This document shows, in pieces, positions 45,709 to 48,577 of a stretch of DNA of 64,000 nt. A program made the translations under genes and the position numbers. The notes under the pieces are model-generated. The model searched no databases and was not told the origin of the DNA. It saw only the letters and a list, made by a program, of their open reading frames with translations. This stretch comes from Candidatus Coprovivens sp. (GTDB lineage Bacteria > Bacillota_I > Bacilli_A > RF39 > UBA660): positions 44,477 to 108,476 of the forward strand of contig JBJFGS010000038.1 of NCBI GenBank assembly GCA_051892935.1. Direction: 5' to 3'. Numbering within the stretch: the stretch's first letter is position 1; each line of letters starts with the position of its first letter.

Positions 45709-46149
45709 TTAAAAATTAAAATTATCAATTTCTCTATCTTCCTGCTCTAATTCATTAACTTTAGAAAGAATACGAAATAAGGCTTCTATATCATTATCAG
45801 TAAGTGAATCAAATAATCTTCTTACAGACTCTTCTAAATTTTTACGTCTATGTAGTAACTTATCATTGCCTTTTTTAGTTAAAGAAACATAAACTTTCCT
45901 ATGATCATCTGAAGAATAACTACGTGTAATCATACCATCATTTTCTAATTCTTTTAACATATAAGCTAAACGTGGTGTAGAAATACCTGTATTTTGAGCT
46001 ATTTCCCCAGATAATGCTTGACCACCATTTTGAAGTAAATAAAATAAAATCGCCTTATGACCATCCCTTTTATTCTTGTGATGATGAATATGTCTTTTTT
46101 GATTAGAAATCATTTTTACCGCTTCTTGCACCATCTTCTCCTTATTCAT
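45709..46149 (-). CDS. MarR family transcriptional regulator
   Basis: Winged HTH: EIA...GIS...., LE..G.I.R...D.R..YV.LT.KG; N-terminal HIHHH. Confidence 0.85.
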
Positions 46150-46987
46150 TAACTACACCTTCTTCCTTATTACCTGAAGCATATAAAATAAGTAATTCTT
46201 CTAATTCATCATTAGATAAAGGTGTAGGAACAGAAAAAGAATTATTATTTTTAATTTTATCTGCTAATAAACCATATTCTTTAGCTTGTTTAGAATCTTT
46301 ATCATATTCAATAACTGTCTTTTTTCTTAATTCTGCATGCTGAACGATATTATCTCTTGAAATAAAATATAAAAGTTGAGTATTTAATTTCTTAGCAAAA
46401 GCTTCAACAAGTTCCTTTTCATTATCAACTAAACGAGAATTACAAATTAAACCACCTAACTTTGTTTTACCAGCTTTAGCATATCGCTCAATACCTTTAC
46501 AAATATTATTTGCAGCATATAGACTCATCATTTCTCCAGAACAAACTATATATATTTCTTCAGCTTTTCCTTCACGAATCGGCATTGCAAAACCACCACA
46601 AACAACATCTCCAAGAACATCATATATTACATAATCTAAATCATCAGAATAACCACCTAATTTTTCAAGCAAATTTATAGATAAAACTATTCCTCTACCA
46701 GCACACCCAACTCCAGGCTCTGGTCCACCTGATTCAACACAACGTATATTTAAATAACCAATAGAAACAACATCATTTAAAGAAACATTTTCTTCTTCTT
46801 TATCACGAATCATATCTAATACTGTACTTTTAGCAAGACCACCTAAAATTAGTCTAGTCGAATCAGCTTTAGGGTCACATCCAACAATCATCAAATTTGC
46901 TCCATTAGATGCCAACGCAGCAGCTAAATTCTGAGTAGTTGTCGATTTTCCAATTCCACCTTTTCCATAAATTGCAATTTGTCTCAT
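46142..46987 (-). CDS. nifH: Nitrogenase iron protein-like reductase (NifH family)
   Basis: [49 protein letters not shown]. Confidence 0.93.
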
Positions 46988-46988
46988 T

Positions 46989-48122
46989 TTACACTTCTCC
47001 CACTTTACTTAATTCATTTTCAATATCCTTAAAATATACAAAATTCTCTGATAATACTTTCATAGTATTAGGTAAAGATAAATAAAATACACTTTTATTA
47101 CACAATTCACTAATATCATCTTCACCACAAACCAAGAAAACACTATCATTATCTAGAACTTTTATTAATTCATCTTCACTATTCAACTTAATATCTCCAT
47201 CTTTCATTAAAGTCTTATCCATTTCAAAAAAACTACAAACAATTATATTACTAAACCCCTTATTAATAAAACTTTCACGAATAGAATTAGATAAAACCTG
47301 TTCTCCAACTATAACAATCATTTTATCATCATTATTCCTCTTTAATGAAAAAGTTAAATCATTATTTTTAGATTTTAACTTGTCAATAATAATATTTTTA
47401 TTATATTGATCTACTGGACATCCAACAACATATGGAATACCAAACTCTCTTTTCATATACTCAGCTATTTTTAAACCAGATACATTAATAACTAGATTAA
47501 CAGAAGCAGCCACAGCTTCTTTTAAATTATCAACACTTTCTAAACATCCCCACTTTGATAGTACATTAAAACCAGCATTTTGTAAAAAATATTCTATTTC
47601 TGAAATTTCATCACTTTGAAAATCAATTAAATTACATCCTAAAATATTAACACCATTTGAAGATTTTTCTTTCGGTACCAATAACATCTTACCCATTAAT
47701 TCTAAACAAGAACTAATACCATACAAATAATCTTTCTGGCCATCTAATAAAACATAACCAACAGGAATACTTAATTCACTTTGTAATAAATCACATATTT
47801 CTTGATAATCAGTATTAATCATTGAAGAACAAGGAGAAGAAGTTAAAATTAAAAATTCTGCATCTGCTATTTCAGGACTATTCCTATAAGCTTCTAAAAC
47901 TTTTTCCTTTGTTCCACATATAACATCGCTTTCCTTAATATGAGTTGATACATTTCTTTGATCACATAATAAACTATCAAAATAATTATAATTATGTTTA
48001 TGACGATTTTTATATTTAGAAGAATCATCAACTATTGCAAAACCATCACTATGATTAATAACACTTAAAAAGCCAAATACATCTGAATAACAAGGCGTAA
48101 TATATTTCCATAATCTTTTCAT
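46989..48122 (-). CDS. Nitrogenase component-1-type oxidoreductase subunit (divergent)
   Basis: E.DVI.G..EK, SPC...I.TD, VNILG, A..N.V....G...A.YM...FGIPY; ATG 48122 behind AGGAG. Confidence 0.8.
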
Positions 48123-48123
48123 T

Positions 48124-48510
48124 CTATATTTCTCTCCTATCCTTAGAATCACACAATCGACAATGATTATGAATAACAACATTTATAGAATAGTTATCTT
48201 TTAACTCACTAACTATAAAGTCAAAATCAGTCGATAATAAAGCTAATTGACATCCATACATCAAAGTAAAATCCTTTGTATTCCTTTCTTCACTTAATTC
48301 AACTATAGCATCAACTATCTGCTTAAGATATCGTCCTGTAGAAAAATCAGAAGAAGAAGGACATAAAAAAGCTAACCTTCCCTCTTTCATTAACTGAACC
48401 ATTTGCGTACCTCTATGCCTTATACAATTCAAAGCACCAACAAACAACAACTGTGAATTTGGTGATGATATTAATAAATCCCTAATATCAAATTTATTTT
48501 TTCTATTCAT
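48124..48510 (-). CDS. Small Cys/His protein resembling the N-terminal domain of a component-1 subunit
   Basis: VG...C.RH, D...G, GCQ..LL.TD, H..C..C; stop abuts the next start. Confidence 0.6.
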   Translation of the reverse strand: MNRKNKFDIRDLLISSPNSQLLFVGALNCIRHRGTQMVQLMKEGRLAFLCPSSSDFSTGRYLKQIVDAIVELSEERNTKDFTLMYGCQLALLSTDFDFIVSELKDNYSINVVIHNHCRLCDSKDRREI

Positions 48511-48526
48511 TATTATTCCCCTTTAC

Positions 48527-48552
48527 AAATATCTAACATTTGTTAGATATTT
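48527..48552. promoter_or_regulatory. Palindromic operator, likely for the operon-encoded MarR
   Basis: AAATATCTAACA-TT-TGTTAGATATTT perfect 12-bp arms overlapping the -10 box. Confidence 0.7.
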
Positions 48553-48577
48553 TAAAATAAAAAAAACAATTTGTCAA
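48549..48577 (-). promoter_or_regulatory. Sigma-A promoter of the nifH-like operon
   Basis: TTGACA (48572-48577), 17-nt spacer, TAAAAT (48549-48554). Confidence 0.7.

Follow-up and report, generated by a model that had tools for sequence, protein, structure and literature searches.

The DNA analysed here, hereafter the window, is a stretch of 64,000 nucleotides (nt) from a genome of Candidatus Coprovivens sp. (assembly GCA_051892935.1, contig JBJFGS010000038.1, positions 44,477 to 108,476), and it carries on its minus strand, from 48577 to 45709, an operon of four intact open reading frames (ORFs) that encodes a nitrogenase-like (NFL) system. In the order of transcription, these genes specify a small subunit of 128 amino acids (aa; 48124..48510), with Cys29, Cys50, Cys87 and a C-terminal H-x-H-C-x-x-C motif; a large subunit of 377 aa belonging to PF00148 (46989..48122), with Cys11, the Asp32-Asp33 pair and Cys98; a NifH-type Fe protein of 281 aa (46142..46987), with the cluster cysteines Cys95 and Cys130; and a MarR-family regulator of 146 aa with a His-rich N-terminus (45709..46149). 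The junctions, TAG-A-ATG, TAA-A-ATG and then an 8-nt overlap of the MarR start with the NifH stop (ATGAATAA), indicate translational coupling. The mechanically called ORF of the large-subunit gene is longer (397 aa) and starts inside the upstream small-subunit gene; the 377-aa start (MKRLWK) is the true one, because 105 of 112 homologues begin with MKRLW. With a NifH-family ATPase (P-loop and two cluster cysteines) and a PF00148 subunit encoded in one operon, the system belongs to the NFL superfamily. The original prediction had described a coupled four-gene operon made of a Cys/His protein of 128 aa, a component-1-like subunit of 377 aa, a well-conserved NifH and a MarR protein. This description was borne out for the arrangement of the genes, all on the minus strand, and for the last three products; as for the 128-aa protein, the ORF stands, whereas its identity as an orphan Cys/His protein gave way to that of a truncated alpha-type component-1 subunit.

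NifH scored 399.9 bits on PF00142 and 444.6 bits on the nifH equivalog model TIGR01287 (cut-off 394.35), and both its P-loop (GKGGIGKS, residues 8-15) and its two cluster cysteines are intact. It stayed under the cut-offs of the models of other NFL reductases, with 384.9 bits on CfbC (cut-off 402), 204.6 bits on BchL (cut-off 345.15) and about 200 bits on BchX. Compared with solved chains, it scored 410.7 bits with 6nzj and 392.8 bits with 1cp2, both NifH, and 383.6 bits with 1fp6 and related Fe-protein chains, which we take to be Azotobacter NifH, versus 265.2 bits with MarH and 162 bits with BchL. The same holds for its relatives: all 48 NifH proteins of at least 260 aa passed the TIGR01287 cut-off (422.8-461.8 bits), making 49 out of 49 with the window, and none of the 48 passed CfbC (369.1-395.6 bits). 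Public records name such relatives "nitrogenase iron protein", among them those of Floccifex, of metagenome-assembled genomes (MAGs) of Lachnospiraceae and Oscillospiraceae and of Enterocloster clostridioformis (77% identical). Since all 49 copies pass the nifH equivalog cut-off, they are genuine "pseudo-nifH" genes, as foreseen by the original prediction, which had called this gene a likely false positive of nifH surveys.

The large subunit scored 69.1 bits on PF00148 (cut-off 28.6) and 41.3 bits on the BchB equivalog model (cut-off 490.35), and its sequence profile was about equally distant from NifE, NifD and BchB (E 1e-20 to 1e-16). Its AlphaFold2 (AF2) model (pLDDT 86.7, pTM 0.88) has a single disordered part, the loop 38-52, which is expanded into G/R/H-rich inserts in homologues. 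Foldseek ranked BchB at the top (3aer_D, E 1.5e-14, TM 0.72), followed by NifK, VnfK, AnfK and NifN. With VIA-align, the top 12 entries were all BchB or ChlB (Z 30.5-33.4, 348-358 residues aligned), residues 2-377 of the model spanning residues 1-405/408 of BchB, and lower scores were obtained for NifN (28.2), AnfK (28.2), MarK (28.1) and NifD (about 26). Judged by its predicted fold, the large subunit is a beta-type, BchB-like component-1 subunit. Long homologues of 430-524 aa were considered as possible fusions and rejected, their extra length being a G/R/H-rich insert after about residue 40. More generally, long low-complexity inserts rich in Gly, Arg, His, Glu and Trp occur in many Clostridia homologues, and the proteins of the window are nearly free of them; they lie after about residue 40 in large subunits (P0007, P0013, P0102, P0104), in N-terminal tails of small subunits (P0120, P0123) and, as a C-terminal GGRPEWAGR-type repeat, in a full-length alpha subunit (L017:6529-8004).

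The 128-aa protein matched no family in Pfam or NCBIfam, the BchN model included, and a search of PDB sequences with its profile returned only a chance match (DnaA, E 0.32), its kinship being revealed only by full-length homologues and by the fold. In five loci of a sister clade (L017, L020, L022, L032 and L053), a full-length PF00148 protein (ORFs of 443-528 aa, 86.9 bits) is encoded directly upstream of the large subunit, and residues 24-127 of such proteins are 44-47% identical to the small protein (E about 1e-32). Searching 1.84 billion representatives with the small-protein profile gave 78 matches, 36 of them short (82-248 aa) and 42 long (262-554 aa, plus one of 3331 aa among them). Where the ranges were listed in full, the matched stretch of the long proteins usually fell within the first 160 residues or so, and PF00148 was found in all 30 of the 42 long matches that were scanned. 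For ten full-length relatives the best NCBIfam model was NifE (seven), BchB (two) or BchN (one), none of them near its cut-off. The protein of 3331 aa (P0187) matched the profile in seven separate stretches (profile positions 17-69, E 3.6e-6) and could be a protein built of repeats or else an artefact of composition.

The AF2 model of the small subunit (pLDDT 83.2) is a four-stranded alpha/beta domain, for which Foldseek ranked ChlN and BchN first (E 3e-4 and 7e-4; query-normalised TM 0.63 and 0.62). VIA-align likewise gave ChlN/BchN (Z 10.2-10.9, chain residues about 19-154), then AnfD, VnfD and NifE (Z 9.8-10.0) and NifD (Z 9.6 over residues 55-193), and 48 of the 50 rows of structural matches were alpha-type chains (D, E or N). 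The matched ranges contain the three alpha cluster cysteines (26/51/112 in BchN, 37/62/124 in NifE and 62/88/154 in NifD). The small protein thus corresponds to domain I of an alpha-type subunit. It is an alpha subunit of the BchN/NifE/NifD type that has lost domains II and III and kept the N-terminal domain, which binds the cluster. Partnership of the two subunits is suggested by their synteny and by a natural fusion protein of 554 aa (P0144), in which residues 3-122 match the small-subunit profile and residues 161-489, starting at a KKLW motif of their own, align with the large subunit of the window (31% identity, E 2e-45); the two proteins of the window would thus form a heterodimer. A split pseudogene, in which the 128-aa and 377-aa proteins would be the halves of one frameshifted gene, was rejected on the grounds that each has its own domain-I motif (GCQxxLLSTD and PCSSMINTD), that their mutual alignment in the motif region is weak and that their structural matches are alpha-type and beta-type, respectively.

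The triad formed by the small subunit, the large subunit and NifH recurs in other genomes. We found 112 homologues of the large subunit (best identity 58%), labelled "hypothetical" or "nitrogenase component 1", of which the eight with a named source come from Lachnospiraceae, Oscillospiraceae, Lawsonibacter and Clostridiales MAGs, and 14 homologues of the small protein (best identity 72%), several of which are listed on contigs just as long as those with large-subunit matches. A locus search with the large-subunit sequence alone returned no relatives, and an alignment query with large subunits returned 53 loci in other genomes, mostly of gut Clostridia, including Blautia glucerasea MSK.18.94, Pseudoflavonifractor sp. 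60, Floccifex, Ruminococcus bicirculans and many gut or rumen MAGs. Clustering of their ORFs gave 53 rows (52 loci and the window, L056 consisting of the first 38 residues only), in which the large subunit was present throughout (53/53) and NifH lay directly downstream of it in 51. A small-domain ORF was detected with a hidden Markov model upstream of the large gene in 48 of 54 places; in the other six (L023, L024, L031, L041, L042 and L047) the contig begins within 255 nt of the large gene. As this gene order recurs in 53 loci, the arrangement is not due to chance, and the system is one of a conserved family that originates from gut anaerobes. The ratio of non-synonymous to synonymous substitution rates (dN/dS) was computed on 40 locus pairs, counting those with dS below 3, and its median came to 0.19 in both subunits (23 pairs for the small one, 27 for the large one) and to 0.07 in NifH (30 pairs). 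Such low values show working genes under purifying selection, free of the pseudogenisation that would have undone the original prediction.

The conserved candidate ligands of a metallocluster are few. In the 112 large subunits they are limited to Cys11 (101/112, with five gaps), Asp32 (109/112), Asp33 (111/112) and position 98, which is Cys in 64 and Ser in 41. Among the loci, no small subunit departs from Cys29 (47/47) or Cys87 (48/48), whereas 38 of 48 have Cys50 and 11 of 48 the C-terminal CxxC. The two cysteines of the large subunit are complementary: 29 loci have Cys11 with Ser98, six (including the window) have both cysteines, 15 have Cys98 without Cys11 and two have neither, position 11 being unreadable in one locus. 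The five loci with L, V or I at position 50 of the small subunit and Cys98 in the large subunit also retain Cys117 in the small one. Going by motif and secondary-structure position, rather than by residue-level superposition, we take Cys29/50/87 of the small subunit to be the counterparts of alpha Cys62/88/154; on this same basis, Cys11 of the large subunit presumably corresponds to beta Cys70 (NifN Cys44), Cys98 to beta Cys153 and Asp33 to the position of beta Cys95 or BchB Asp36. Four cysteine ligands are nearly always available and six are not, and NifB is absent (see below), so that one bridging [4Fe-4S] cluster is the simplest solution. The covariation of the cysteines and the lack of NifB thus suggest a single cluster of the NifEN or DPOR type, held between the two subunits.

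The host assembly (1.81 Mb in 53 contigs, 92% complete) was searched with profiles genome-wide, and contains one PF00148 match and one true NifH. No NifB (TIGR01290) was found in this 92%-complete genome, and neither were HemB and HemC, which indicates that the host makes no tetrapyrroles itself and that any tetrapyrrole substrate would have a dietary or host-derived (animal) origin. The claim of the original prediction that other nif genes are missing, made for the window, therefore extends to the genome, as does its picture of a stand-alone nitrogenase-like system, in view of the lack of NifDK, NifB, HemB and HemC. In five other host genomes NifB did not reach the cut-off either, and the large subunit is the only PF00148 match in three of those five. 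Of the six host genomes searched in all, five have no NifB-like gene; Blautia glucerasea has in addition a second NFL system, which is associated with a NifB-like gene.

The operon is foreign to the relatives of its host. The host is an uncultured gut member of the Bacilli, and the LepA protein encoded on this contig shares 87% identity with its counterpart in Candidatus Coprovivens excrementavium (Bacilli incertae sedis) and 70-79% with those of "uncultured Bacilli/Tenericutes" gut MAGs. The GC content of the window is uniform (0.23-0.31), so that the operon is not a binning artefact. The large subunit was absent from all 60 relatives searched, of which 26 belong to the genus of the host, 10 others to its family and the remaining 24 to its order or class. 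In a class sample of 400 scored genomes, one further genome being left unscored, the family profile was strong in the host genome alone (504.7 bits), and the large subunit was found in none of the 49 same-family genomes; both samples together give 0 out of 85 same-family genomes (95 distinct genomes). From this absence we conclude that the operon was acquired horizontally, and the surprise expressed in the original prediction at finding it in this lineage was justified.

One genome of the class sample, G411, scored 238.9 bits on the large-subunit family profile. Its NFL genes were examined as possible members of the family and rejected as those of a different subfamily, with an HDPSGC motif and a NifH that is 48% identical. 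They lie in a complete Bacilli genome (locus L149, C1:1406000-1424000, at 38-15387 on the plus strand), where two NFL component-1 pairs (423+318 aa; 425+378 aa) and a NifH-like gene of 254 aa form a co-directional cluster with genes for a GltD-like oxidoreductase, an [FeFe]-hydrogenase, HypF, HypD, HypE, HydF and a radical-SAM protein. This cluster suggests a link between that NFL subfamily and the maturation of hydrogenases or metallocofactors.

Upstream of the operon, a promoter-like site on the minus strand (48549..48577) consists of TTGACA (48577-48572), a 17-nt spacer and TAAAAT (48554-48549), matching the consensus at 11 of 12 positions. It is the top-scoring site in the 6 kb scanned, and its first base, 48577, is the start of the feature delimited in the original prediction. 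In this AT-rich DNA, such sites are as frequent as in shuffled sequence (46 found versus 43.1 expected) and thus common by chance, so that the position of this site is meaningful and its score is not. A perfect inverted repeat of 26 nt with 12-bp arms, AAATATCTAACA-AA-TGTTAGATATTT (48527..48552, minus strand), overlaps with both the -10 box and the likely start of transcription, and 17 nt separate its end from the start codon; it is a candidate MarR operator. Among the loci with a MarR gene, L016, L019, L030, L029 and L055 have perfect palindromes that are just as far from the start codon.

MarR itself exceeded the cut-offs of PF01047 (32.1 bits) and PF12802 (33.1 bits), and related models matched as well. 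Its best NCBIfam model was HpaR (49.9 bits, under the cut-off of 121), so that no specific equivalog was reached, and only generic MarR relatives were found in PDB and NCBIfam, giving no clue to a ligand. A MarR gene follows NifH in 22 of the 53 rows, often with a second one. The coupling of the genes, the palindrome on the -10 box and this recurrence make it plausible that MarR controls the operon by binding the palindrome. The His-rich N-terminal stretch of MarR (45709-46149) and the H-N-H-C-R-L-C end of the small subunit (48124-48510) are possible metal-binding motifs, which lie near the ZIP and CDF transporter genes described below. In L009, L027, L028 and L037, a GC-rich conserved hairpin, AGAGCCAGGAGAAATCCTGGCTCT, lies about 20-45 nt upstream of the small-subunit start and includes AGGAG, a likely ribosome-binding sequence. 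These loci have a tannase or PPDK_N gene upstream and no MarR gene downstream of NifH, and the hairpin could be a translational or attenuator element acting in place of MarR control.

Around the triad, the neighbours vary, and are chiefly genes of transporters, of MarR regulators and of phenolic esterases. Counted in rows or loci, MATE exporters occur in 10-12, an Opp/Nik-type ABC importer downstream of the triad in 7-8 (its binding protein scoring best on NikA, 84 bits), a FecCD/PBP2 importer upstream in 3-7 (its binding protein scoring best on SstD, a binder of ferrated catecholamines, 125 bits), ABC exporter pairs in 3-4 and a true ModA transporter in three (114.9 bits, cut-off 62.5). An EstA-Ig-like esterase is encoded directly upstream of the small gene in four and a subtype-B tannase (618.5 bits, cut-off 300) upstream of it in three, directly so in L027 and L028; altogether, at least six loci have one or the other of these two enzymes encoded immediately before the small gene, and L009 is a seventh locus with a tannase. 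A PPDK_N protein, similar to phenylphosphate synthase, is found in 2-4 and a protein similar to DAPG hydrolase in three. Behind the operon, the window encodes a ZIP transporter resembling ZupT, a CDF transporter whose best models are MamM and FieF, and a desulfoferrodoxin; the orientation of these genes says little, since the genes here are all on one strand. Taken together, the predicted products of the neighbouring genes share the theme of small-molecule import and export under MarR control; plant phenolic esters and metal chelates recur as sub-themes, neither being strong enough to name the substrate.

The strand bias extends across the region: GC skew is negative in every 2-kb bin of the window (1-64000; -0.14 to -0.53), and all sizeable ORFs between 40.6 and 53 kb are on the minus strand, the plus strand having only three short ORFs of 52-57 aa that overlap them. 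It seems that the entire window belongs to a single replichore, whose gene-strand bias is extreme. The operon is preceded by an HD-domain gene, and immediately upstream of the latter lies a tandem of three paralogous minus-strand ORFs (49199-51104; 209-211 aa), each starting with MIDLT or MFDLT; the one that was scanned had no Pfam match.

From these lines of evidence, we propose, with a probability of about two in three, that the operon is functional, was acquired horizontally and encodes a minimal two-component NFL reductase that works with simple Fe-S clusters alone. In this proposal, a homodimeric NifH-type Fe protein would bind MgATP, and its [4Fe-4S] cluster would deliver electrons of low potential to a catalytic component composed of the BchB-like beta subunit (377 aa) and of an alpha subunit of which just the N-terminal domain is left (128 aa). 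These subunits would jointly ligate one bridging [4Fe-4S] cluster, through Cys29, Cys50 and Cys87 of the small one and Cys11 and/or Cys98 of the large one, and the invariant Asp32-Asp33 pair of the latter would stand at the position of the BchB aspartate ligand. The substrate, presumably an exogenous small molecule, would bind on the beta subunit or at the open interface beside the cluster, and be reduced directly by the cluster in the manner of DPOR, COR and CfbCD. The loss of alpha domains II and III together with the lack of NifB argues for such a direct reduction rather than for a cofactor of the FeMo-co type. MarR would probably repress the promoter through the palindrome lying over the -10 box, and would probably be released from it by a small ligand.

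Several observations weigh against this proposal. A component-1 partner lacking alpha domains II and III offers no obvious closed substrate pocket, and would fit a non-catalytic scaffold or an electron relay as well. Ligation of the cluster is not uniform, in that Cys50 of the small subunit is missing from 10 of 48 copies and that L015 combines a small subunit devoid of Cys50 with a large subunit devoid of both Cys11 and Cys98. The equivalences drawn with the ligands of BchN/BchB, NifE/NifN and NifD/NifK are those of motif and secondary-structure position, not of a residue-level superposition. The genes beyond the triad vary between loci, so that the neighbours agree on no substrate. Finally, MarR is present in just 22 of 53 rows, about six of which have perfect palindromes.

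An alternative that we regard as unlikely is that the proteins are a metallocluster scaffold or maturase, comparable to NifEN with NifH, on which an Fe-S or other metal centre would be kept or processed before its transfer to another enzyme. The commonest ligand pattern, three alpha-like cysteines and the first beta-like cysteine, is what we take to be the pattern of the NifEN [4Fe-4S] cluster; NifE was the best model for seven of the ten full-length relatives of the small subunit, all of them far under its cut-off; and metal transporters are common neighbours (ModA in three loci, FecCD-type in 3-7, NikA-like in 7-8, ZIP and CDF in the window). On the other hand, none of the genes beside the triad that are conserved among the 53 loci encodes a client enzyme or a cofactor-biosynthesis protein, NifB is absent from the host, the fold of the large subunit is closer to BchB than to NifN (Z 33.4 versus 28.2), and MarR with MATE or ABC exporters as neighbours fits a response to small molecules better. 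The distant NFL proteins of G411, encoded within a hydrogenase-maturation cluster (HypF, HypD, HypE, HydF, the radical-SAM protein and the [FeFe]-hydrogenase), would also speak for a scaffold, but they are of another subfamily, in which HDPSGC replaces VDD, Cys11 is lacking and NifH has no more than 48% identity. The truncation of one subunit and the patchy distribution, with absence from relatives, might instead recall a decaying remnant of a larger nif or NFL cluster, with NifH kept for another role and the small ORF a dead fragment. This very improbable explanation is largely refuted by the preservation of the truncated form in 42 loci of several families, by a dN/dS of 0.19 with invariant cluster cysteines, by the translational coupling at every junction, by the existence of a natural fusion protein and by the finding that the small subunit is more conserved than the large one (best matches 72% versus 58% identical).

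A characterised NFL function, either in tetrapyrrole biosynthesis (DPOR, COR, CfbCD) or in the cleavage of organosulfur compounds (MAR, ISR), is a poor candidate, despite the BchB-like and BchN-like folds and the 384.9 bits of NifH on the CfbC model. The host lacks HemB and HemC, the CfbC, BchL, BchX and BchB models all remain under their cut-offs and not one of the 48 NifH proteins of the family passes CfbC. As for organosulfur compounds, NFL systems of gut Clostridia are linked to sulfur metabolism in a 2026 review (PMC13474568), but MarB/NifB is missing here, NifH scores 265 bits with MarH versus 411 bits with true NifH, and no sulfur-assimilation gene was seen among the conserved neighbours. 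Lastly, the passing of the nifH equivalog cut-off could be read as the mark of a genuine though unusual nitrogenase, to which we assign practically no probability: there are a single PF00148 gene and a 128-aa stub where full-length D and K subunits would be needed, there is no NifB, and the large subunit is of the beta type with conserved cysteines at positions 11 and 98 alone. The operon is unable to fix nitrogen. The tannase and esterase genes, the DAPG-hydrolase-like and PPDK_N proteins, the SstD-like binding protein, the MATE exporters, the ZIP and CDF transporters and a MarR best matched by HpaR hint at a long shot: the clade would be a group of its own, distinct from groups IV-VI, whose bridging [4Fe-4S] cluster, opened to solvent by the loss of alpha domains II and III, would serve an ATP-driven reductase of very low potential. 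This reductase would act on bulky exogenous compounds imported by gut anaerobes, at best guess plant polyphenols or catechols or their ferric chelates of very low potential, with MarR sensing the phenolic.

The proposed reductase can be set against the known systems. Like DPOR (BchL/ChlL with BchNB/ChlNB), it combines a NifH-like ATPase with a heteromeric component of the N/B type, predicted here to use [4Fe-4S] clusters alone, dispenses with NifB and shows the N and B folds (Z 30.5-33.4 with BchB/ChlB for the large subunit; Z 10.2-10.9 with BchN/ChlN for the small one, domain I alone). The invariant Asp pair sits at a position where BchB reportedly uses an aspartate as a cluster ligand. Unlike in DPOR, the N-type subunit has about 130 residues and comprises domain I only, the large subunit aligns with residues 1-408 of solved BchB chains of 418-429 residues, NifH is nearer to true NifH than to BchL (411 versus 162 bits) with the Bch models far under their cut-offs, and the host makes no tetrapyrroles. 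Full-length BchB presumably has a longer C-terminal region, with no counterpart in the 377-aa protein. The alpha/beta pair of NifEN is said to hold a single bridging [4Fe-4S] cluster by 3 + 1 cysteines; the same 3 + 1 pattern is predicted here, also with a NifH-type Fe protein as the partner. In contrast with NifEN, there is no NifB or other source of an L-cluster, the alpha subunit is without the domains that hold the L-cluster, and the NifE and NifN scores are far under their cut-offs. CfbCD resembles the system as a two-component ATP-dependent NFL reductase, which is our prediction here, and CfbD has one bridging [4Fe-4S] cluster; however, CfbD is homomeric whereas two different component-1 genes are found here, and the CfbC cut-off was missed (384.9 < 402). 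MAR is another two-component, ATP-dependent NFL reductase, as predicted here, but it needs MarB/NifB and clusters of the P and L types, which are not encoded here, where about four cysteine positions are conserved as against the six of a P-cluster.

According to the same review (PMC13474568), NFL proteins are divided into groups IV-A (Nfa), IV-B (CfbCD), IV-C (MAR), IV-D and IV-E (both of unknown function), IV-F (ISR), V (DPOR and COR) and VI (Elusimicrobia, unknown function). Group VI is described there as lacking NifB, retaining four or fewer of the six P-cluster cysteine positions, having D/K proteins that are very divergent and relying, probably, on simple [4Fe-4S] chemistry; its NflH is about 40% identical to NifH, its NflD is full-length and may or may not be accompanied by NflK, and tetrapyrrole genes form its context. 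So far as this description goes, our system resembles Group VI in lacking NifB and in having at most four of the six cysteine positions, and differs from it by a NifH that passes the nifH equivalog cut-off, by a truncated alpha subunit and by a context of transporters and MarR. With Groups V and VI and with CfbCD it has in common the lack of NifB and, by prediction, a chemistry of simple clusters. Truncated or fused alpha subunits, a NifH of the true-nifH model and a transporter/MarR context set it apart from all of these as well as from NifEN. No truncated alpha subunit of the NifD/BchN type was found described in the literature searched, a search that lay outside subscription journals and supplements, and the word "truncated" does not occur in the 2026 Chem Rev review (PMC13474568). 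Together, these data support a new architectural variant of the nitrogenase-like reductases, whereas a new group is a hypothesis.

This variant offers an evolutionary series, from full-length through truncated alpha subunits to fused alpha-beta proteins, together with a map of cluster ligands that can be tested. Blautia glucerasea MSK.18.94 and Pseudoflavonifractor sp. 60 are apparently isolates, so that the system could be studied in culture. With about 790 residues in three proteins and no NifB, it would be one of the smallest systems of heteromeric build that deliver electrons in the manner of nitrogenase, and only slightly exceed the size of the homomeric CfbCD (about 260 + 390 residues). 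This small size makes it attractive for the study of Fe-protein docking and electron gating, and possibly as a compact ATP-driven reductase module of low potential.

The finding also bears on nifH surveys, in which stand-alone "pseudo-nifH" genes, abundant in gut and anoxic metagenomes, inflate the estimates of nitrogen fixers. In the portion of Mise et al. 2021 considered here (PMC8597730), a T3 class of stand-alone nifH genes, without nifD and nifK, comes mostly from Clostridia and gut anaerobes; as in that class, the NifH proteins studied here pass the nifH models though nifD and nifK are absent. The classes of that study are based on annotated nifD and nifK, and the portion mentioned describes no partners, whereas a pair formed by a truncated alpha and a beta subunit is found here. 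One large class of pseudo-nifH thus now has a defined partner, the pair of a truncated alpha and a BchB-like beta subunit, and surveys should discard nifH sequences that adjoin a gene of the MKRLW...VDD type.

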